In this document: positions 17,066-26,879 of the stretch, piece after piece
Layout of the letters: each line of letters opens with the position of its first letter
Position numbering within the stretch: position 1 is the stretch's first letter
NCBI GenBank assembly: GCA_041618055.1
Contig: JBFJNS010000001.1
Span: 1-26,879, forward strand
DNA length: 26,879 nucleotides
Direction: 5' to 3'
Source: Candidatus Binatia bacterium
Lineage (GTDB): Bacteria; Desulfobacterota; Binatia; UBA9968
Made by a program: the position numbers and the translations under genes
The notes under the pieces: model-generated
Told to the model about the DNA's origin: nothing
Database searches by the model: none
Seen by the model: only the letters and a program-made list of their open reading frames with translations

Positions 17066-18253
17066 ATGCCGCAAGCGAATCTGTTCACTCCGATAACCAT
17101 GCGGGGAGTCACATTTCCAAACCGAATCATGCGCACGTCGATGGTTTCCGGCCTGGCAACCGAAGATGGGTTAGTCACCGATGCGCTGAAGCAGAGGTAT
17201 CAGCGGGAAGCCAAGGGTGGAGTCGGTTCCATTGTTGTCGAGGCGGCCGTAGTTCTCCCTTCGCGCAGCTCCTTCAACCTGCGAATTAGCGACGACCAAT
17301 TTACCGACGGACTGCGAGACCTGGTCACGTCCGTTCGTGCGGCAAACCCGGAAACGATACTCGGCATCCAGATCATGCACTTCTTAAAAATAGCCAGAAG
17401 CGGCTGGCGCCAAAAGGTCGAGGACTTTAAGCCCGAGGATCTGCCTGTCATAGTCCAGCTGCATGCGCAAGCAGCGCGGCGCGCAGTTGCCGCCGGATTT
17501 GACTTCATCGAAATTCACATGGCCCATGCCTACACGCTGGCCTCATTCCTGTCCCGGTCGAATGGAAGAACCGATTCTTACGGTGGCAAGTTGGGCAACC
17601 GCATGCGACTGCCGATCGCAGTCTACGAGTCGGTTCGCGACGCCGTGGGCTCGGATTTCCCGGTTGGCGCGCGCATCAACGGGGAAGATTTCACTGCTTC
17701 GGGAAGTACCCTAATGCAATCCACTCGGGTGGCTGGCAGGCTTGCCAGGTTGGGCGTGGATTATATTAGCGTCTCGGCGGGAAGTAGATTCGAGGATGCC
17801 GCGCCTCCTCCGCCCAACATGCCCCCTGATCCGATGTCGGGATACAGCGGCCACCGAATGAGTCCGTGGTGGTGGTTTCCGGACTTGACGCATGTTTATC
17901 TCGCTCGGAGCATCCGCGAACATCTCCGAGAGCGCGGGTATTCCGTTCCCATCGTCGCCGCGGGAAAGATCCGCACCCCCACCGAGGCTGAGCAGGTCTT
18001 GGCTCAAGGGGGCGCAGATATCATCGGGCTGTGCCGCCCTCTGCTCTGCGATCCGGACTGGCCGCTCAAAGCCAAAAAGGGAAGGAGCAAAGACATTGTC
18101 CGATGCACTTCGTGCAACTGGTGCCTCGAGGCGGACTCCAGGTTTGAAAAAGTCACCTGCTCCCGCTGGCCCGAAGGCGCCGTGGTCGCCCCTGATCCAT
18201 TTTCGGCTGACATTGCCCGGCCGTCTGAATTACCTGAAGACGTGAGTTTGTAA
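17066..18253 (+). CDS. NADH:flavin oxidoreductase / Old Yellow Enzyme family with C-terminal Fe-S Cys motif
   Basis: FPNRIMRTSM, GFDFIEIHMAHAYTLASFLS..NGRTDSYGG.L.NRMR, IIGLCRPLLCDPDWP, and CTSCNWC-x11-C. Confidence 0.9.
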   Translation: MPQANLFTPITMRGVTFPNRIMRTSMVSGLATEDGLVTDALKQRYQREAKGGVGSIVVEAAVVLPSRSSFNLRISDDQFTDGLRDLVTSVRAANPETILGIQIMHFLKIARSGWRQKVEDFKPEDLPVIVQLHAQAARRAVAAGFDFIEIHMAHAYTLASFLSRSNGRTDSYGGKLGNRMRLPIAVYESVRDAVGSDFPVGARINGEDFTASGSTLMQSTRVAGRLARLGVDYISVSAGSRFEDAAPPPPNMPPDPMSGYSGHRMSPWWWFPDLTHVYLARSIREHLRERGYSVPIVAAGKIRTPTEAEQVLAQGGADIIGLCRPLLCDPDWPLKAKKGRSKDIVRCTSCNWCLEADSRFEKVTCSRWPEGAVVAPDPFSADIARPSELPEDVSL

Positions 18254-18362
18254 TCGCGCCGAATAAATTAACGACTCGTTGTCGAAATTCCCGATCCACG
18301 GCGTGCCGATGGCTTCATGTAAATCTGCTGCACACAGACGAGCAAAGACGAGCACAAAGGGT

Positions 18363-19958
18363 ATGTCCCAACCTCGATTCGGGCTAACCATTGGTGATCT
18401 TCCGGACCGTTTAGCCGGCGAGCAGCCGGACCGCATTGCTTTAGTCGGCGACACGGGCCGGCTCACTCGGGCGGAACTCCGCGAGCGGATCCATCGCCTC
18501 GCCGCGTCCTTCCTTGATCTGGGCATCACCAAGGGGGATAGGGTTTTGATCCAACTGCCCAACTGGGCGGAGTTCGTCTACTCCTATTTCGCCCTACAGA
18601 AAATCGGCGCCGCGCCAGTCTTACTCATATCGGGCTACGGCAAGGTGGAAGTCTCACATCTGTGCCGCCTGACGCAAGCCTCGGCGTGGCTCGTCCCGTC
18701 CGTGCACAGAGGCGGGGATTATTGCTCATGGATCGGAGAGGTGAAAGCTGACAACCCGCAACTCAGGCACATCGTGTCGGTGCGGGGTCAGGGCAAAAAC
18801 CGCAATTTCACGGCTAGCCTCGAAGAATTGCTGTGTAGAACCGACGCTCGAAAAGATCAGCCGGCGACGGCGGTGATTAGTCCTCAGCGGGCAGACCTGG
18901 CGCACATCTTGCCCTCGGGCGGGACCACCGGCTTGCCCAAGGCGATTCCCCGCACTCATGAAGACTATCTCAGCAACGTCTACCACCTTCATCGGGCGGG
19001 AGACATGCAGGTCGAAGATATTTGCCTGCTAGTAGTTCCGATCGGACACAACCTTGCCCTGCTCAACGTCGTCGGGGCCATGCTCGTCGGCTACCGACTG
19101 GTGCTGCTGGACTCGACCCGTCCCGGGGATATCTGCCAGTCCATCGAAGCGGAGAGAGTCACCTACTTCCCAACAGTTCCCAGCTTGATCAATCGGGTGC
19201 TGGAATTTGACAAGAAGGGAGATTTCGATCTCACGTCGCTGCGAAAGATTTCGGCTGGGGGCGAGCCGAGCGCCCCGGAGCTGGTAGAAAGATTTTGCCG
19301 GGAACTCAACTCTGTCTATATCAAAGAATTCGGTATGAGTGAGGGACTGCTCTGCCGCACCCGGCTCGACGATGATCTCGAAACGATCTGCGCCACAGTG
19401 GGAAAGCCGGTATGTTCTCAGGATGAAATCAGGATTCTCGACGAAGCGGGTGAAGCGCTCCCTGTGGAAACCGACGGCGAATTGGCGGCGAGAGGACCCG
19501 GGATATTTGCCGGCTATCTGAATAATCCCGAGGAGAACCGAAGAGCTTTTACCCCCGACGGGTTCTTTAGGACCGGCGACCTGGCCAGAATAGACCATTC
19601 GGGCAACCTGAAAATCACGGGAAGAATCAAAGATCTCATCAACCGCGGCGGAGAAAAGATAAGCCCTGCTCAGATCGAGGGGCTTTTGCTCTCTCACCCG
19701 GACATTGTGGATGCCGCGGTGGTCGGCATGCCGGATGCCGCCCTCGGGGAAAAGGTCTGCGCGTATGTTCGGCCCGTGCCGGAAAAACAATACCTAACCC
19801 CTGCCGCGATCGAAGCCTTCCTGGAGAGCCGGGGAGCCTCGAAATTCCTCATTCCCGAGCGCTTCGAGTTTGTCGACGCGTTGCCGCTTACCGAGGCCGG
19901 CAAGCACGACAAAAAGGTCCTGCGCGAAGACATTAAACGAAAACTGGGATTGCTTTAA
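18363..19958 (+). CDS. EntE/DhbE-like adenylate-forming enzyme, probable aryl/acyl-CoA ligase
   Basis: SGGTTGLPKAIPRTH, IGHNLAL, FGMSEG, FFRTGD, GRIKDLINRGGEKI, GEKVCAY, GKHDKK. Start uncertain (18279, 18309 or 18363). Confidence 0.88.
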   Translation: MSQPRFGLTIGDLPDRLAGEQPDRIALVGDTGRLTRAELRERIHRLAASFLDLGITKGDRVLIQLPNWAEFVYSYFALQKIGAAPVLLISGYGKVEVSHLCRLTQASAWLVPSVHRGGDYCSWIGEVKADNPQLRHIVSVRGQGKNRNFTASLEELLCRTDARKDQPATAVISPQRADLAHILPSGGTTGLPKAIPRTHEDYLSNVYHLHRAGDMQVEDICLLVVPIGHNLALLNVVGAMLVGYRLVLLDSTRPGDICQSIEAERVTYFPTVPSLINRVLEFDKKGDFDLTSLRKISAGGEPSAPELVERFCRELNSVYIKEFGMSEGLLCRTRLDDDLETICATVGKPVCSQDEIRILDEAGEALPVETDGELAARGPGIFAGYLNNPEENRRAFTPDGFFRTGDLARIDHSGNLKITGRIKDLINRGGEKISPAQIEGLLLSHPDIVDAAVVGMPDAALGEKVCAYVRPVPEKQYLTPAAIEAFLESRGASKFLIPERFEFVDALPLTEAGKHDKKVLREDIKRKLGLL

Positions 19959-20086
19959 GAAATTCACGCGGAGTCTCGAACTCTCAAGGGGGCAGTACCA
20001 GTTCATCATTGCTGCTCCAGCAACGGGACGGAACTCCAAGGTGTAGTGCGGTGAAAGCGCTAAGAATGCAGCGCAGCCGCTTTACA

Positions 20087-20116
20087 TTGACACTTGGGCA
20101 CTCTTTTCGTTAGCCT
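20087..20116 (+). promoter_or_regulatory. Putative sigma70 promoter of the Ldh_2-family gene
   Basis: TTGACA (20087-20092), 18-bp spacer, TAGCCT (20111-20116). Confidence 0.45.
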
Positions 20117-20158
20117 GTGCGAAAGCGTAACTTTCCACCGAACTCGAAGCAGCAAACC

Positions 20159-21259
20159 GTGAAGAGAGATAAACAAGTCCGGATCTTCAGCTCCGACGAT
20201 CTCAAAACTTTTTCTGCCGAAGTTTTTAGGCATTTCGGCATTGCCGAAGCGGACGCCCGCCAAGCCGCCGATGTCTTGGCCAGGTCCGATCTCAGGGGCA
20301 TCGACTCTCACGGCGTTGCAAGACTGCACACCTATTTCGACATGCTCGAGTCAGGACGAATCAATCCCAAGCCCAACATCAAAATTGTTCGCCAGAAGGC
20401 CAGCGTGGCAAGCATCGACGGCGACAACGGCTTGGGCCTCGTAGTCGGTCCCAAAGCGAACGAAATCGCCATGGACAAGGCGGAGAAGTTCGGCTCGGGT
20501 TGGGTGAGCGTGTCCAACACGAACCATTTCGGCATTGCGGGCTACTATCCCCTGAAGGCGCTGGAGAGAGACCTCATCGGCTGGGCCATGACCAACTCCA
20601 CGAAGCTGGTGGCGCCGTTATGGGGAGCGGAACGAATGCTTGGAACCAACCCCCTCGCCATCGCGTTTCCGGGCTACTCCGAGCCTGCCATTGTGATCGA
20701 CATGGCGACCAGCACCGTCGCTTACGGCAAGATTGAAATTGCCCTGCGCGCCAGGACGAAGATCCCCAAAGGATGGATCATCGATAGGCACGGCCGCGCC
20801 ACCACCAGGCCACAGGATATGATCGAGGGAGGCGCTCAACTCCCGCTCGGCTCCGAGAGAGAAATGGGCGGGCACAAGGGATACGCTCTGGCGGCCATGG
20901 TTGACATCCTTTGCTGCGTCCTGAGCGGCGCCAACTGGGGGCCGTTCGCCCCGCCCTTCGCCTTGAGACAGGAAATTCCTGAACGCAGCGTGGGCAAAGG
21001 CATCGGCCATTTTTTCGGCGCCATGCAGATCGACGGCTTCATCGACAAAAACGAATTCAAGAAACAGATCGACGAGTGGATCAGGGTCTTTCGCAAAACC
21101 AAACCCGCGCCCGGCACCAACGGGCCTTTGATTCCCGGCGATCCCGAAAGGGAAGCGGAAGCGATAAGAAGCAAAGAAGGGATACCGCTCCTTAAACCGG
21201 TGGTGGATGATTTGCTCGATATCTCACGGCGAACCGGAATATCGTTGGGAACAAGATAG
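20159..21259 (+). CDS. Ldh_2 family (malate/L-lactate/L-sulfolactate-type) NAD(P)-dependent dehydrogenase
   Basis: DLRGIDSHGVARL, NHFGIAGYY, LGTNPLAIA, DMATSTVAYGK, GGHKGYALA, IPGDPE. Likely GTG start at 20159. Confidence 0.9.
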   Translation: MKRDKQVRIFSSDDLKTFSAEVFRHFGIAEADARQAADVLARSDLRGIDSHGVARLHTYFDMLESGRINPKPNIKIVRQKASVASIDGDNGLGLVVGPKANEIAMDKAEKFGSGWVSVSNTNHFGIAGYYPLKALERDLIGWAMTNSTKLVAPLWGAERMLGTNPLAIAFPGYSEPAIVIDMATSTVAYGKIEIALRARTKIPKGWIIDRHGRATTRPQDMIEGGAQLPLGSEREMGGHKGYALAAMVDILCCVLSGANWGPFAPPFALRQEIPERSVGKGIGHFFGAMQIDGFIDKNEFKKQIDEWIRVFRKTKPAPGTNGPLIPGDPEREAEAIRSKEGIPLLKPVVDDLLDISRRTGISLGTR

Positions 21260-21276
21260 AAACCGAGATGATGGAG

Positions 21277-22602
21277 TTATGGAACAATGCTAGCGCGCAC
21301 CCGATCTCTCACATCGATCCTCACGAGGCCTGAACTTCGATTCTCATTTGCTCTGTTGCTGCGAATGGAAAACGGAAGATACATATAACCGCTGCCATCC
21401 ATCAGTCCGTTTCCACTAGAGTTGCTACCCCTCAGAACCGAGCTCAAGTCACCCAGCTCTGTTTTCTTGCCCGATTGAATTTCGTACTCGTACAGGTGCA
21501 GGGCACCGTCTCCGCTGCTGGTCGTTCGGGGAATCGTGAAGAGCTTGCGTTCGTCTCTGGATAGAGTCAGATTGCCGAGCCGTCGTACGGTTTCACCACG
21601 GGCAACTCTTTCTTTGGTCAGGATTGACCCCAAATCTTCCAATTTTTCGGCACGGACATTAAAACGATACAATAAACCAATGGTGTTGGCTAAGTAAATC
21701 GTCTTTCCACCTGAGGCTACAGCCATGCCCACAAAGAACCCGTTCGAGAATCGGCTGTCTGTGGGAACAAGCCGGCCCGCCTTACGGTCAAGTTTGAACA
21801 GATAGTCGGGTGCGGCCCCGTAAGCGTATGCTGCAAAAACATCGCCTTGGTTTGTCGCGATCACCACGCGGCCGACGTTTGATCGCTGGTTTTCTGGCAG
21901 GCCGCGTCCATATTTGGTCGTTCTCCCCGTGTTCAAATCATGCAGTAAGACGTTGCCGTTGGGAAAAGTCCACCCCACCAGTTTGTCCTCTTCACGCAGG
22001 ATATTCATTGCGATGATCCCCTCATGGACTATCGAAATTCCGCGGGAATCATTTTTGCTCAGATCGTTAAACTTTCCCGTGGCAAGATCGTAAGAGATGA
22101 AATGCCCACCACGGTGTTTTTCTATATTTTCCAGTGAGTGGTGGTCATGTGTGGAAAAATACATCTTACCGTTGTGCTCAAAAATATCCGAATGAACTTT
22201 CGCAACTCCCTCTGCATGCGGCCAGTGCTCGTTAGGCCCTAGGTTCTTCTCTTCTCTGAGAATTTGGCGCACGGAATTCAAAAACCGCTTTTCCCCCGAT
22301 TTTGTGTCATACGAGAAGATTAGAACATCGCCTGGTAATCCAGACCTTTCCTTTCCATTGCCTATGGCCACGTAAACGATACCGTTATGGTCTATTCCCG
22401 TGCCATGCCAAAATTCACTCAGGGTTTCCCCGCGGGGGGTAACCTCAGAAAAGTCGATGATATCGACGTTTCGAGCCCGCCCCACGTCGACCATCCCCAT
22501 GGCCAGCAGCCACGACACCAGCAGAATCGACTCTAATGCGCAGCCGCGTTTCTTAGCGGAAAAATGTATCTTGAATAGGTCGCTTTTCATGCAAGTTTGC
22601 AC
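21277..22602 (-). CDS. Hypothetical secreted beta-propeller-like protein
   Basis: Long ORF with a hydrophobic N-terminal segment and repeated blade-like motifs (IFSYDTKSG, FISYDLATG, LYRFNVRAEK, LYEYEIQSG). True start probably downstream of 22602. Confidence 0.65.
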   Translation of the reverse strand: MQTCMKSDLFKIHFSAKKRGCALESILLVSWLLAMGMVDVGRARNVDIIDFSEVTPRGETLSEFWHGTGIDHNGIVYVAIGNGKERSGLPGDVLIFSYDTKSGEKRFLNSVRQILREEKNLGPNEHWPHAEGVAKVHSDIFEHNGKMYFSTHDHHSLENIEKHRGGHFISYDLATGKFNDLSKNDSRGISIVHEGIIAMNILREEDKLVGWTFPNGNVLLHDLNTGRTTKYGRGLPENQRSNVGRVVIATNQGDVFAAYAYGAAPDYLFKLDRKAGRLVPTDSRFSNGFFVGMAVASGGKTIYLANTIGLLYRFNVRAEKLEDLGSILTKERVARGETVRRLGNLTLSRDERKLFTIPRTTSSGDGALHLYEYEIQSGKKTELGDLSSVLRGSNSSGNGLMDGSGYMYLPFSIRSNRANENRSSGLVRIDVRDRVRASIVP

Positions 22603-22751
22603 CCAACTCTTTGTCGCTTCGAAGCCCGTAATGACAGTTCTGTTCGGCGAGAGATAATGTTCGACACATTCAAGTCATGTTTTCTTAGTTTCGCGATGAC
22701 GCATTCCAAACCACACCCACCTATATCACGGGATTCCCGTCATCCCAGTGC

Positions 22752-23423
22752 CTAGCGCACCTTCCAAAGGTCCGGGGGCATTTTGATTCGCCTCTCCGCG
22801 GCCAACTTGGCTGCCCGCTCCGCGCCTGCGCGCGCATGTTCGAGTTGCCAGTTGCCGAGCTCTAATCCCAGACCATCGACCACCCGCACTCGGAAGTTGA
22901 AGTACGCGCAGACGTGCACAATGTCGAGGATATCGCGGTCGGTCCACCCTGCGTCTCTCAGCTTTTGGATATCCGCCTCCGTCATGGCGCTGGGAGTCAA
23001 GGTCAATTTCTCGGCATACTCCAGCATCGCGTATTCCGCTGCTGTCAGCTTCATCTCCCGCCAATCGGATTTTACCTGCTCTACCGCTAGATCGTCGCCG
23101 CCTTCTTGACGCAGAAACTCTGCGTGGGCGACCGTTCAGAACCGACAGTTGAGGGTGGCGGACGTCACCGTAGCGATCATTTCGCGCTGGGCCGTCGTCA
23201 GGCGCGACTCGCCGCGCATGATCTCCCACATCAGCTCCGCCGTATGCCACATCGCCTTGGGATTAAGACTGTGCAACATCGGCGGACTCACCGGCGGACC
23301 TCCCGCTTCCTTGTTGCGCTCCTGAACGAGCTTTTCTCCTTTGCGCTGCTCGCCGAGCTTTCTGTAAACCTCTTTCAATTCGCCTTCGGCTTCATGCTCG
23401 GGGATAACTTTAATCCACGGCAC
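22752..23423 (-). CDS. AhpD-like / peroxidase-related (CMD superfamily) selenoprotein, 223 aa, Sec96 encoded by TGA 23138-23136
   Basis: ORFs 23136..23423 and 22752..23054 are in one frame. Read-through gives REMIATVTSATLNCRF-U-TVAHAEFLR...YAEKLTLTP...DILDIVHVCAYFNFRVRVVDGLG, so the AhpD CxxCxxxH motif has TGA at the second Cys. GTG start with AGGAGG RBS, true stop TAG, SECIS-like hairpin downstream. Confidence 0.85.
23097..23135 (-). promoter_or_regulatory. SECIS-like hairpin 3' of the UGA in the AhpD-like gene
   Basis: ACGCAGA-GUU-UCUGCGU (23125-23109) starts 10 nt after the UGA, loop G at +18. Lower stem GUCGCC/GGCGGC. Confidence 0.7.
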
Positions 23424-23587
23424 TTTGATCTCCTCCTTTTTTTGTCATCGTTCCGGGACTCATCTCAAACCGCAGATCGATCCGGATCAAGGATCAGCGG
23501 ACGTTCATAAATCACATAATCACTTAATAGCAAGATATCTGCAAAGCATAGAGGCTCCGCCTCACTCTATTTCAGGATCATCAACAA

Positions 23588-23617
23588 TTGACATCACAGA
23601 ACCTTATCGGCTAGTCT
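23588..23617 (+). promoter_or_regulatory. Putative sigma70 promoter of the OsmC-like gene
   Basis: TTGACA (23588-23593), 18-bp spacer, TAGTCT (23612-23617). Confidence 0.45.
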
Positions 23618-23726
23618 TTTTTACAAACAGGGATGCAGGACCAGCTCAGTTTTTCAGTCGGCAGCATTGCGTTCTGAAGATTAGCCTTTCCCCGACCACG
23701 CCGTTGAACCTCTGAAAGGAGAAGCT

Positions 23727-24287
23727 ATGGAAGAGATCGTCAAAAAACTGGTTTCCCGGACAGCCAAACCTGGAGCGGGGGGGGTCCCCGGCAGCCTTCA
23801 GCCGCATCAGGACCGCGAACTGCGCGTGGCCATCGAGGCTGAAAGTCTGGACGGCATGAAAAAGCGAGCCGTCGTCACTCTTGAACAACCCGAAGGTAGC
23901 ACGTTTTCTATCATATGCGACGAAGGAGCCTATCTTGCAGGCGAGGATACCGCACCACCGCCCCTTGCCTACTTCAGCGCCGGCATCGCATTTTGAATGT
24001 TAACCCAACTGTCCCGGTTCGGGACAATCGCGAAGCTTAACGTTCAGTCAATCCGGCTCAAACAGGTCACACGGTTCTTCATGAAGGGTTCTGCTCTCCA
24101 AGGGACATTACGAGGCGGCGCCATCGGACTTGAGACGCAGATTGAAGTCGAGTCCAGCGAGCCAGCGGAGAAGATCCGCCACCTGATCAAAATGGGCGAG
24201 CAGACCTGCTTCACCCTTCAGTCGCTCGTCAATCCGGTCCCGGTCAAGACGTCGGTCGCACTGAACGGAGAGCCGCTGGTCCTATAG
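23727..24287 (+). CDS. OsmC/Ohr-like selenoprotein, 186 aa, Sec90 encoded by TGA 23994-23996
   Basis: ORFs 23727..23996 and 23997..24287 abut in frame: CDEGAYLAGEDTAPPPLAYFSAGIAF-U-MLTQL...MGEQTCFTLQSL. The TGA occupies the first conserved OsmC Cys (UxxT) and the second Cys (C161) is intact. AAGGAG RBS, true stop TAG. Confidence 0.85.
23997..24046 (+). promoter_or_regulatory. SECIS-like hairpin 3' of the UGA in the OsmC-like gene
   Basis: UGUCCCG-GUU-CGGGACA (24010-24026) starts 13 nt after the UGA, loop G at +21. Lower stem UGAAUGUUAA (23994-24003) / UUAACGUUCA (24037-24046). Confidence 0.72.
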
Positions 24288-24350
24288 GCAAGAGCCGCCC
24301 TAAAGCTCGGTTTTCACCGGTTTGTACGGCAATCCCAGACTTGTCATGGC

Positions 24351-25655
24351 TCAGCGAATCATGCTGTTCGGCAGGACCAGAGCTATTTGCGGGAATACAA
24401 CTAGAACCACGAGTCCCACGCCCATCGCAATCCAGAAGGGAAGGATACCCAGGAAGATGTCGCCCATGGAAACGTTTTCGGCGACTCCCTTGACGACGTA
24501 GACGTTTACTCCCACGGGAGGACTGATTAGCCCCATCTCGAGAACGATCACAACCAGCACGCCGAACCAAATCGGGTCGAACCCCAAGGCCAGAATCAAC
24601 GGGTGCACGATTGGAATCGTCAGTACCAGCATAGCGAAGCCCTCAAGGAACATTCCGAGCACGATGTAGATGAGCAAGATGGAAAACAGGACTGCGTAGG
24701 GCGACAGACCTAAATGGGTCAGGGCCTCGATTAAGTTGGCCGAGACGTGGGTCAGGGCAAGGAAGGGACTGAAGATAAAGGCCCCGATCAGGATGAGGAA
24801 GACAAGGGCGGTGGTGCGAACTGCTTGCAGTAAAATAGTCGAGAGCACATCCAGCGTAAACTTTCCCCGAAACAAGGTGAGCAGAAAGGCTAGACAAGCA
24901 CCGATGCCCGCAGCTTCCGTGGGTGTAAACAGGCCGGCGTAGATCCCGCCAATCGTAATAATCACGATACCGATCATGAAGCCTGCCTGCCGTGTCGCCC
25001 TCAGCTTATCGAGCCAATGGGTCGCCGGCCCCGCGGGACCGAGCTCGGGCTTGATGCGGGTCTGAATATAGATAGCCAGAATAAAAAGAGCGGTCAGGAG
25101 GAGCCCGGGCAACACGCCTGCCAGAAAAAGCCGGCCGATGGATTCTTGCGTTAAGATCGCGTAGATGACAAAGCCGGTGCTGGGCGGGATCAGAATACCC
25201 AGCGTCCCTCCAGCAGCTACACAACCGGTGGCGAGACGGGCATCATACTTGTAGCGGCGCATTTCCGGCAAGGCCACCTGGCCCATTGTCAGTGCGGAAG
25301 CAACGGATGATCCGGATAGCGCGGCGAAACCGGAACAGGCGGCGATCGTGGCCGAAGCGAGGCCACCGCGCCAGTGGCCAACCCAGGCGTAGGCGGCGGC
25401 GTATAGATCGCGGCTCATCCCCGAAACAGTGGCTAGATTTCCCATAAAGATAAAGAGGGGGATAACGATCAGCTCGTAGTTGGAGGAAACGACGAACGGC
25501 TCGGTGGCGAGGAGAGCAAGAGCCGCCGTCCAGCCGTTGGCGAAGCCGAAGCCAACGAAGCCGACCAGTAGCATGGCGATGCCGACCGGCATGCGGAGCG
25601 CGAGAAGGAAAAGAAGCCCCGCAAAACCGGCGATGCCGAGGGCCGTCGGTGTCAT
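24351..25655 (-). CDS. dctM: TRAP transporter large permease
   Basis: IPLFIFMGNL, SGSSVASA, GGTLGILIPPS, FTPTEAA, DPIWFGV, GLISPPVGVNVYV. Confidence 0.95.
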   Translation of the reverse strand: MTPTALGIAGFAGLLFLLALRMPVGIAMLLVGFVGFGFANGWTAALALLATEPFVVSSNYELIVIPLFIFMGNLATVSGMSRDLYAAAYAWVGHWRGGLASATIAACSGFAALSGSSVASALTMGQVALPEMRRYKYDARLATGCVAAGGTLGILIPPSTGFVIYAILTQESIGRLFLAGVLPGLLLTALFILAIYIQTRIKPELGPAGPATHWLDKLRATRQAGFMIGIVIITIGGIYAGLFTPTEAAGIGACLAFLLTLFRGKFTLDVLSTILLQAVRTTALVFLILIGAFIFSPFLALTHVSANLIEALTHLGLSPYAVLFSILLIYIVLGMFLEGFAMLVLTIPIVHPLILALGFDPIWFGVLVVIVLEMGLISPPVGVNVYVVKGVAENVSMGDIFLGILPFWIAMGVGLVVLVVFPQIALVLPNSMIR

Positions 25656-26161
25656 GGGTGTTTTGCCCCCGGCCGGGGGCGAGAGGCTCGGAGCGCTTGC
25701 ACAAAAAGAACCAGGGCGTAGAGCCCAGCGCCTATCGCAATGATGAAGAAGAACGGCGACCGCGGTATTTCAATGAGGTTTGAGGCCTCCCCGTAACGAT
25801 ACGCATCGAGGCCGCGCCTCCAGGTTTGCCAGGCGATATAAGAGAACAAAAGACCGGAAACCGTGTGCACGACGCGATCCGACCACAGCAGTGTGCGAGG
25901 CTTCAATCTGGAGGCGACCACGTCGAGTGCGACGTGCCCCCCGGTCCAGCCGCAGTAGGCCAGGGCGGGGAAAACGACGACGATCAAGCTGACTTCGGAT
26001 AAATCCTGCCCTCCTAGAATAGGCGCGTTGAAAACATAGCGCATGATCACGGCGACGACGGTAAGACCCATCAACCAGAAGAGAGCGATTCCGCTGATGT
26101 AAGCGCATAAGCGAACCGCGCTGCTGACAATCCTATCGAGCCGGTCAGGGCGCTTGTCCAC
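25652..26161 (-). CDS. dctQ: TRAP transporter small permease
   Basis: Four TM segments, V.MRYVFNAPI.G..DLSE, GGHVALD. Between dctP and dctM. Confidence 0.92.
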   Translation of the reverse strand: MDKRPDRLDRIVSSAVRLCAYISGIALFWLMGLTVVAVIMRYVFNAPILGGQDLSEVSLIVVVFPALAYCGWTGGHVALDVVASRLKPRTLLWSDRVVHTVSGLLFSYIAWQTWRRGLDAYRYGEASNLIEIPRSPFFFIIAIGAGLYALVLFVQALRASRPRPGAKHP

Positions 26162-26168
26162 GGCCCTC

Positions 26169-26879
26169 TCAGTTGGCGGCGCCCATTGCAGCCAGTATGG
26201 CTCTTGCCGGAACGCCTTCTTTTTCGAAGTTCGCCACGATCTTATCCCTCGCTTTGATCAGTAGCGAGTTCCCCTTTTTCACCTCGTCGGGCGATAGCAC
26301 AATCACCTCGTGCTTCGCGCTCTTGCGAACGCCATCGAGATCCTCCGCGCCCTCCCTTTCGTAGACTCTGGCACCCATAAGGCTCAGTTCACGACCGGTA
26401 GTCTTGTCGATGACGGCCTTGTGTGGACTCGACAGGCTCTCGTAGGCTCTTTTGTTCATCGCGAGAAAAAAAGGCGACCGCCCAAAGACAAGCCCAATCG
26501 TATAGTATTTGGCCACCTCCCCGATTTTGAACGATGTAATGACGGTGGGAGGAACCATAAGGGCATCCACGACGCCGGTGCTAAGGGCACGGTACATCTC
26601 GCTGGCCGGTAGGGATACGGGGGTAGCGCCTAAGGCTGCAATCAGGTCGGCTTGATCCTTCGACGGCACGCGCATCTTCATGCCCTTAATGTCCTCGACC
26701 TTGCGGATTGGCTTATCTTTCGTCATCAGGATGGGCCCGTCATTTCCCCAAACAGCAAGGACTTTTACCCGCTCGTATTCGGTGGCTAGGTACTTGTCGA
26801 ATATATCCCAGAGCTTGTTGGTTGCCTCGATAGCGTCCGATGCAACTCCAGGGAGTTCGATCATTGTCGTTCTGGGGAA
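26169..26879 (-). CDS. dctP: TRAP transporter substrate-binding protein (5' part outside the window)
   Basis: Frame is open to the window edge (FPRTTMIELPG...). KPIRKVEDIKGMKMRVP retains the carboxylate-binding Arg; EMYRALSTGVVD. Confidence 0.92.
   Translation of the reverse strand, partial: FPRTTMIELPGVASDAIEATNKLWDIFDKYLATEYERVKVLAVWGNDGPILMTKDKPIRKVEDIKGMKMRVPSKDQADLIAALGATPVSLPASEMYRALSTGVVDALMVPPTVITSFKIGEVAKYYTIGLVFGRSPFFLAMNKRAYESLSSPHKAVIDKTTGRELSLMGARVYEREGAEDLDGVRKSAKHEVIVLSPDEVKKGNSLLIKARDKIVANFEKEGVPARAILAAMGAAN

Follow-up and report, generated by a model that had tools for sequence, protein, structure and literature searches.

AhpD-like selenoproteins carrying a CxxU motif (COG2128) have been described since 2005, when 27 sequences were found in the Sargasso Sea metagenome (Zhang, Fomenko & Gladyshev 2005, PMC1088965). 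In the GOS data they are represented by AhpD-like 1 and AhpD-like 2, both with CxxU, and rank fourth among prokaryotic families by selenoprotein number (PMC2398784). A 2026 review has entries for 'AhpD-like protein, TIGR01926, CxxU' and for 'OsmC-like protein, PF02566, UxxT', with no measured activity for any selenoprotein member of TIGR01926 (PMC13188914), and a dedicated database holds an AhpD-like family page (PMC13326102). The proton relay of AhpD consists of Glu118, Cys130, His132, Cys133 and His137 in the M. tuberculosis enzyme, and that of PA0269 of Glu36, Cys48, Tyr50, Cys51 and His55 (PMC3141380).

Here we analyzed a stretch of 26,879 nucleotides (the window) from a metagenome-assembled genome (MAG) of a Candidatus Binatia bacterium, positions 1 to 26,879 of contig JBFJNS010000001.1 in assembly GCA_041618055.1. 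The minus strand holds a single frame of 223 codons, running from a GTG at 23423 to the TAG at 22754-22752, and its lone interruption is a TGA at 23138-23136, codon 96. Judged from its sequence, 23423..22752 is almost certainly a selenoprotein gene. Its product is very probably one 223-residue AhpD-like 'peroxidase-related enzyme' of the CMD fold, with UGA codon 96 recoded to selenocysteine (Sec). The features of the reading frame are as follows:

22752..23423, minus strand: AhpD-like (TIGR01926) CDS of the putative selenoprotein, 223 codons plus TAG (translation with TGA read as U, TIGR01926, Pfam CMD)
23432..23437, minus strand: Shine-Dalgarno sequence AGGAGG, 8 nt upstream of the GTG (23423-23421), read directly from the sequence
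23136..23138, minus strand: in-frame UGA, codon 96, second position of the CxxU redox motif (TGA column in the orthologous loci, Cys in homologues)
23124..23183, minus strand: active-site helix-turn-helix E81-x11-C93-x-x-U96-x3-H100, the AhpD proton-relay signature (alignment, model, known spacing)

The window gene is a further member of this known selenoprotein family. Like the other members it scores above the TIGR01926 cut-off, has CxxU with Sec in the second place and is followed at a short distance by a SECIS-type hairpin with a G in its loop, and here, as in the family, Cys-containing homologues are widespread. Unlike the family proteins of about 185 aa, those of the window group have 223 aa, the extra parts being a Pro-rich insert (about residues 30-48) and, at the C-terminus, a helical tail (about 188-223), and the hosts are MAGs of Binatia, 'Deltaproteobacteria' and Dehalococcoidia. 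The Pro-rich insert, the C-terminal helix and the distribution over Binatia-type bacteria and Dehalococcoidia are the only traits that set the group apart.

The Cys-type proteins of known structure (6k40, 3c1l, 2oyo, 2pfx and 2prr) resemble the window protein with 22-34% identity, target-normalised TM-scores of 0.81-0.89 and an E...CxxC...H helix-hairpin in the same place, but they have Cys where Sec is predicted here and are without the N-terminal insert and the C-terminal tail. M. tuberculosis AhpD (1GU9), the characterised reductant of AhpC, shares the Glu-x11-Cys-x-x-Cys-x3-His spacing and the all-helical CMD fold, whereas its chain topology differs, its identity to the window protein is very low and Phe95 takes the place of its His132; in addition, ahpD adjoins ahpC in M. 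tuberculosis, which the window gene does not. The NF041238 family (AhpD_rel_CFYUT (seleno)protein) also has a C-x-x-U-T motif in a CMD-type domain, but it is a 357-residue family, and with 56.8 bits against a cut-off of 175, and 223 aa against about 357 aa, the window protein is not a member. The family NF053654 (YciW-related selenoprotein) was rejected on score.

With translation table 11 two ORFs are called here, one of 95 aa (23423..23136) and one of 100 aa (23054..22752). The original prediction, made from the sequence alone, held that these are parts of one ORF, and we found that the frame is open apart from the TGA, with both the coordinates and the residue number Sec96 correct. The 81 nt separating both ORFs (23135-23055) are in frame and stop-free, and encode the same 27 residues, TVAH...DWRE, that had been read there before. 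The start signals were likewise borne out. The AGGAGG stands at a proper place ahead of GTG 23423, while the sole purine run upstream of the internal ATG at 23054, GGGAG, abuts the Met codon with zero spacer, and this Met is retained in only 54% of 41 orthologues, the others having Ile, Ala or Leu. Start and end of the read-through protein agree with the orthologues, which begin with M-P-W-I-K and end with W-x-V-R.

Orthologous loci showed the same interruption throughout, as a TGA was found at the codon-96 column in 51 of 51 loci, which come from MAGs of Binatia, 'Deltaproteobacteria', Syntrophobacteraceae and Dehalococcoidia. Eleven relatives of the same order have an orthologue with 56-87% identity and exactly one in-frame TGA each, in the context C-R-[FY]-U-T-[VI]-x-H. 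The named genomes that were scanned contributed a further 39 loci, in MAGs labelled Deltaproteobacteria, Candidatus Binatia, Syntrophobacteraceae, Dehalococcoidia/SAR202 and Chloroflexota, and every one has the TGA in this column. More distant full-length homologues carry Cys at the U96 column (P0003 with CSFC, P0005 with CRYC, and P0107-P0121 except P0116); P0116, with Trp there, is the lone non-TGA homologue without Cys at this position. The TGA and Cys sequences together make up a classical Sec/Cys pair.

Pairwise comparison of close orthologues (Nei-Gojobori) gave dN/dS values of 0.03-0.12 on both sides of the TGA. Selection on the two sides had been named in the original prediction as a check to make, and it is purifying on each. 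Purifying selection also acts on the 27 codons that lead from the TGA to the internal ATG, 'intergenic' under table 11, with pN of 0.016-0.14 and pS of 0.37-0.52 against close relatives.

When loci of Dehalococcoidia/SAR202/Chloroflexota (L046-L070) are set against those of Binatia/'Deltaproteobacteria' (L033-L045), orthologues show 70-77% identity to the window protein across phyla. The nucleotides of the candidate SECIS hairpin are near-identical between these two sets of loci. Horizontal transfer of the gene together with its putative SECIS between phyla would be compatible with these sequences.

The main value of the finding is for annotation, as the window gene stands in the records in truncated fragments (95-126 aa), and the same holds for well over a hundred relatives in public databases. 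The public records P0002 and P0004-P0106 mostly contain one end of the protein, either about 126 aa from the C-terminus or about 127 aa from the N-terminus, with more than 100 matches of about 126 aa, and the JGI record P0002 prints a W at the TGA (CRFWTVAH). Because the records hold fragments, and one prints W, the enzyme is invisible in these lineages, and mis-annotation thereby hides what is probably a selenium-dependent redox enzyme in soil, groundwater and marine lineages. The locus also adds one more well-supported instance to a known selenoprotein family, in a MAG that is rich in candidate selenoproteins.

The active-site motif reads in full E81-x11-C93-R-F-U96-T-V-A-H100. It had been predicted that the TGA occupies the second Cys of a CxxCxxxH site, and CRF-U-TVAH was indeed found, with the Cys of Cys-type homologues aligned to the TGA; Cys also stands opposite U96 in 6k40 and 3c1l, the two alignments that were printed. 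An alignment of 26 sequences shows no change at C93 and H100, and at least 90% conservation at E81 and position 96. The spacing of Glu, Cys, Cys (Sec) and His is identical to that in M. tuberculosis AhpD and PA0269, and the window protein keeps four of the five positions of the AhpD proton relay, the middle residue being Phe95 here and Tyr in some orthologues.

An HMM search with the read-through protein, also proposed in the original prediction, placed it in the expected family. With Cys substituted for Sec, the PF02627 (Pfam CMD) match spans the TGA (43.9 bits over residues 55-138; cut-off 23), and NCBIfam TIGR01926 'peroxidase-related enzyme' is passed with 128.4 bits against a cut-off of 81.8. 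The AhpD-like identity was thus upheld as that of an AhpD-like 'peroxidase-related enzyme', but this falls short of a demonstrated AhpD, and ahpC is not adjacent. By sequence, the best solved structure is D. radiodurans AhpD (6k40, E=1.7e-25), with further matches to Mlr4105 (3c1l), 2oyo, 2pfx and 2prr. AlphaFold2, with the 26-sequence alignment as input, predicted one compact all-helical domain of 11 helices (pLDDT 94.6, pTM 0.91), in which the motif lies where helices 77-90 and 94-106 join, with the TGA at the turn between them. Foldseek matched the model to 3c1l, 6k40 and 2prr with E values of about 2e-9 and target-normalised TM-scores of 0.84-0.89, and the debrominase Bmp8 is among the fold matches with a target-normalised TM-score of 0.80. 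Because the CMD match and the predicted single fold both cross the TGA, the two halves are not separate domains, and according to the model neither half of the gene could form a CMD domain alone.

Downstream of the UGA the mRNA can be folded into a hairpin, which overlaps the coding sequence:

23099..23130, minus strand: candidate bacterial SECIS (MFE and centroid fold, 12-orthologue consensus, synonymous constraint)

Its upper hairpin (23125-23109) has 17 nt, with a 7-bp stem ACGCAGA/UCUGCGU and the apical loop GUU, and begins 10 nt past the UGA, and a lower stem of 4 bp pairs 23130-23127 with 23102-23099. In the minimal E. coli SECIS the upper stem-loop has about 17 nt, stands about 11 nt away from the UGA and carries G/U in its apical loop, and we take the geometry of the 23125-23109 hairpin to agree with it. 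Six stem pairs are the same in all 12 orthologues of the consensus fold, and the seventh is A-U in ten and G-C in two. In other MAGs the A-U to G-C variant was seen again, together with A-U to G-U wobbles, and the apical loop is GUU or GGC among the orthologues, with a G in the loop. A two-sided compensatory change occurs in one stem pair only, the stem overlapping conserved codons.

Synonymous diversity was markedly reduced at the hairpin. Over 41 distinct orthologous coding sequences the normalised synonymous entropy of the hairpin codons 100-105 is 0.15, as compared to 0.77 at other conserved degenerate codons, and the 6-codon window with the lowest synonymous diversity in the whole gene begins at codon 100. 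Concurrently, pS is lower in the 27 codons after the TGA than in the remaining downstream part. The folding energy of the hairpin is unexceptional against shuffled sequences (z = -0.3 for 66 nt, -1.45 for 41 nt), and since these scores are weak alone the case for the hairpin is built on synonymous constraint and covariation. An Rfam scan of 22600-24400 at E<=10 gave no SECIS or other credible RNA family, a result that is uninformative because bacterial SECIS elements are poorly represented in Rfam. The conservation of the hairpin, the synonymous constraint and the compensatory pair are as expected for a bacterial SECIS, and we therefore regard it as a candidate for one.

A tRNA-Sec is encoded in contig C183 of the MAG (Rfam RF01852, 76.7 bits against a gathering score of 47; anticodon TCA according to ARAGORN). 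In the same MAG (66% complete, 544 contigs) selA, selB and selD were not found, as the searches gave weak paralogue matches only, the selD-like one being ThiL. Of the 29 relatives searched, 28 have selA and selD above the cut-offs and 26 have selB, usually side by side in a selA-selB-selD cluster. In an assembly that is 66% complete and encodes a tRNA-Sec, the failure to find these genes says little against Sec use. In most relatives (G001-G035) selD itself carries one in-frame TGA, which suggests that SelD is a selenoprotein there.

The MAG holds at least eight further TGA-interrupted redox genes, namely two AhpD-like, two OsmC-like and four AhpC-TSA frames, and from these sequences it appears that this incomplete genome has a large redox selenoproteome. 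Six of the frames are:

C11:2746-3120, C316:88-462, C49:6174-6569, C39:9572-9937, C342:2800-3321 and C383:1345-1845: four AhpC-TSA (peroxiredoxin-like) and two AhpD-like frames, one TGA each

Two other readings of the interrupted frame were weighed against Sec insertion. The TGA could be a true or nonsense stop, leaving two separate small genes or a pseudogene, with a 95-aa fragment and a 100-aa restart at ATG 23054. Table 11 yields exactly these two ORFs, public gene callers routinely give such fragments in relatives (the >100 matches of about 126 aa), and selA, selB and selD are not in the 66%-complete assembly. We nevertheless find this reading hardly credible. A TGA retained in every one of the 51 orthologues across two phyla, dN/dS of about 0.05-0.1 to either side of it and also in the 27 'intergenic' codons, an internal Met that only about half of the orthologues have and that is without a spaced Shine-Dalgarno sequence, and a CMD domain and predicted single fold that span the TGA all argue against it. 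Alternatively, the UGA could be read without selenium, if the codon were reassigned throughout the genome (code 4 or 25) or if Trp or Cys were inserted by a near-cognate tRNA, and the W printed in the JGI record P0002 is what a caller using an alternative code would give. This is highly improbable, as TGA is the commonest ordinary stop, ending 272 of 639 long open frames genome-wide and 7 of the 17 long ORFs of the window. Moreover, homologues have Cys at the site rather than Trp or Gly, with P0116 as the one exception, the genome has a dedicated tRNA-Sec(UCA), a SECIS-type hairpin follows the UGA, and relatives encode SelA, SelB and SelD.

If the UGA is recoded to Sec by the canonical bacterial mechanism, SelB with Sec-tRNA(Sec) would bind the 17-nt hairpin 10 nt past the UGA, and Sec would be delivered at codon 96 instead of release factor 2. 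At the N-terminus of its active-site helix the product would then bear a selenenylsulfide redox centre, C93-x-x-U96, between Glu81 and His100. The attacking nucleophile of M. tuberculosis AhpD is the second Cys of its motif, and Sec96 would therefore sit where a low-pKa, highly nucleophilic selenolate is most useful. The chemistry would most likely be that of a thiol/selenol oxidoreductase in hydroperoxide or disulfide reduction. We propose a role in hydroperoxide/protein-disulfide reduction because of the family membership and because OsmC-like genes lie nearby, here and at the loci of five relatives, and we give a function as hydroperoxide-related reductase about an even chance. An AhpC/AhpD pair of the M. 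tuberculosis type is unsupported because no ahpC is adjacent; in the window no AhpC-TSA gene was found near the selenoprotein gene, and the AhpC-TSA matches of the genome are on other contigs. Rather unlikely, by our estimate, is a selenoprotein with some other CMD-fold chemistry, such as Bmp8-like reductive dehalogenation, protein disulfide or persulfide reduction, or metal/metalloid handling. Such chemistry would be in line with the missing ahpC neighbour and the Bmp8 fold match, with the many orthologues in Dehalococcoidia and the tandem paralogue arrays, which suggest diversified substrates, and with a TIGR01926 selenoprotein group for which no activity has been measured (PMC13188914). On the other hand, the AhpD proton relay is kept at four of its five positions, the nearest solved relatives carry annotations as AhpD or as proteins of antioxidant defence, and OsmC-like genes of hydroperoxide-reductase type recur nearby, in this window and at five relatives' loci.

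The divergently transcribed neighbour of the window gene (23727-24287, plus strand) encodes an OsmC-like protein (Pfam OsmC, 35.9 bits). A single TGA interrupts its frame at codon 90 (23994-23996), and the residues around it, GIAF-U-MLT, show the UxxT motif known from OsmC-like selenoproteins. Behind this TGA comes a hairpin of 7 bp with a GUU loop, set within a long lower stem (z = -2.6). A second OsmC-like copy, 87% identical and with the TGA retained, is located on contig C362:2281-2835. As a conserved operon partner the head-to-head OsmC-like gene was rejected, since the close copy adjoins the AhpD-like gene only in this window and at 5 of 51 loci a distant OsmC-like gene occurs no more than 3 kb away from the orthologue:

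L034:660-1094, distant OsmC-like gene near an orthologue
L037:789-1223, distant OsmC-like gene near an orthologue
L041:5513-6055, distant OsmC-like gene near an orthologue
L038:2402-2767, distant OsmC-like gene near an orthologue
L064:2552-2923, distant OsmC-like gene near an orthologue

Three of these have an in-frame stop at the column of the TGA in the window's OsmC-like gene (GF*MFSQL), and two have Cys. The loose but recurring association of OsmC-like and AhpD-like genes may reflect a functional link.

At 22 of the 51 loci, among them L014, L015, L034-L038, L042, L053, L062 and L064, one to three AhpD-like paralogues (33-47% identity) start within about 20 nt after the orthologue, most of them with one TGA. 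At the window locus this array is absent, and the downstream gene is a 441-aa ORF (21277-22602) without a Pfam match.

It is tempting to view the window group as a distinct 223-aa AhpD-like selenoprotein subfamily, marked by its N-terminal insert and C-terminal helix, with 70-77% identity between Binatia/'Deltaproteobacteria' and Dehalococcoidia, and heading TGA-bearing paralogue arrays in Binatia/'Deltaproteobacteria'. Its members might pair with the divergently transcribed OsmC-like putative selenoprotein in a two-selenoenzyme relay for hydroperoxide reduction, where the CxxU protein recycles the UxxT peroxidase, and the module might have spread horizontally. We consider this extended scheme improbable and offer it as speculation.

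The genes flanking the putative selenoprotein pair have no obvious tie to it; on one side they encode Oxidored_FMN, an AMP-binding ligase and an Ldh_2 dehydrogenase (17066-21259, plus strand), and on the other the TRAP transporter components DctP, DctQ and DctM (24351-26864, minus strand).
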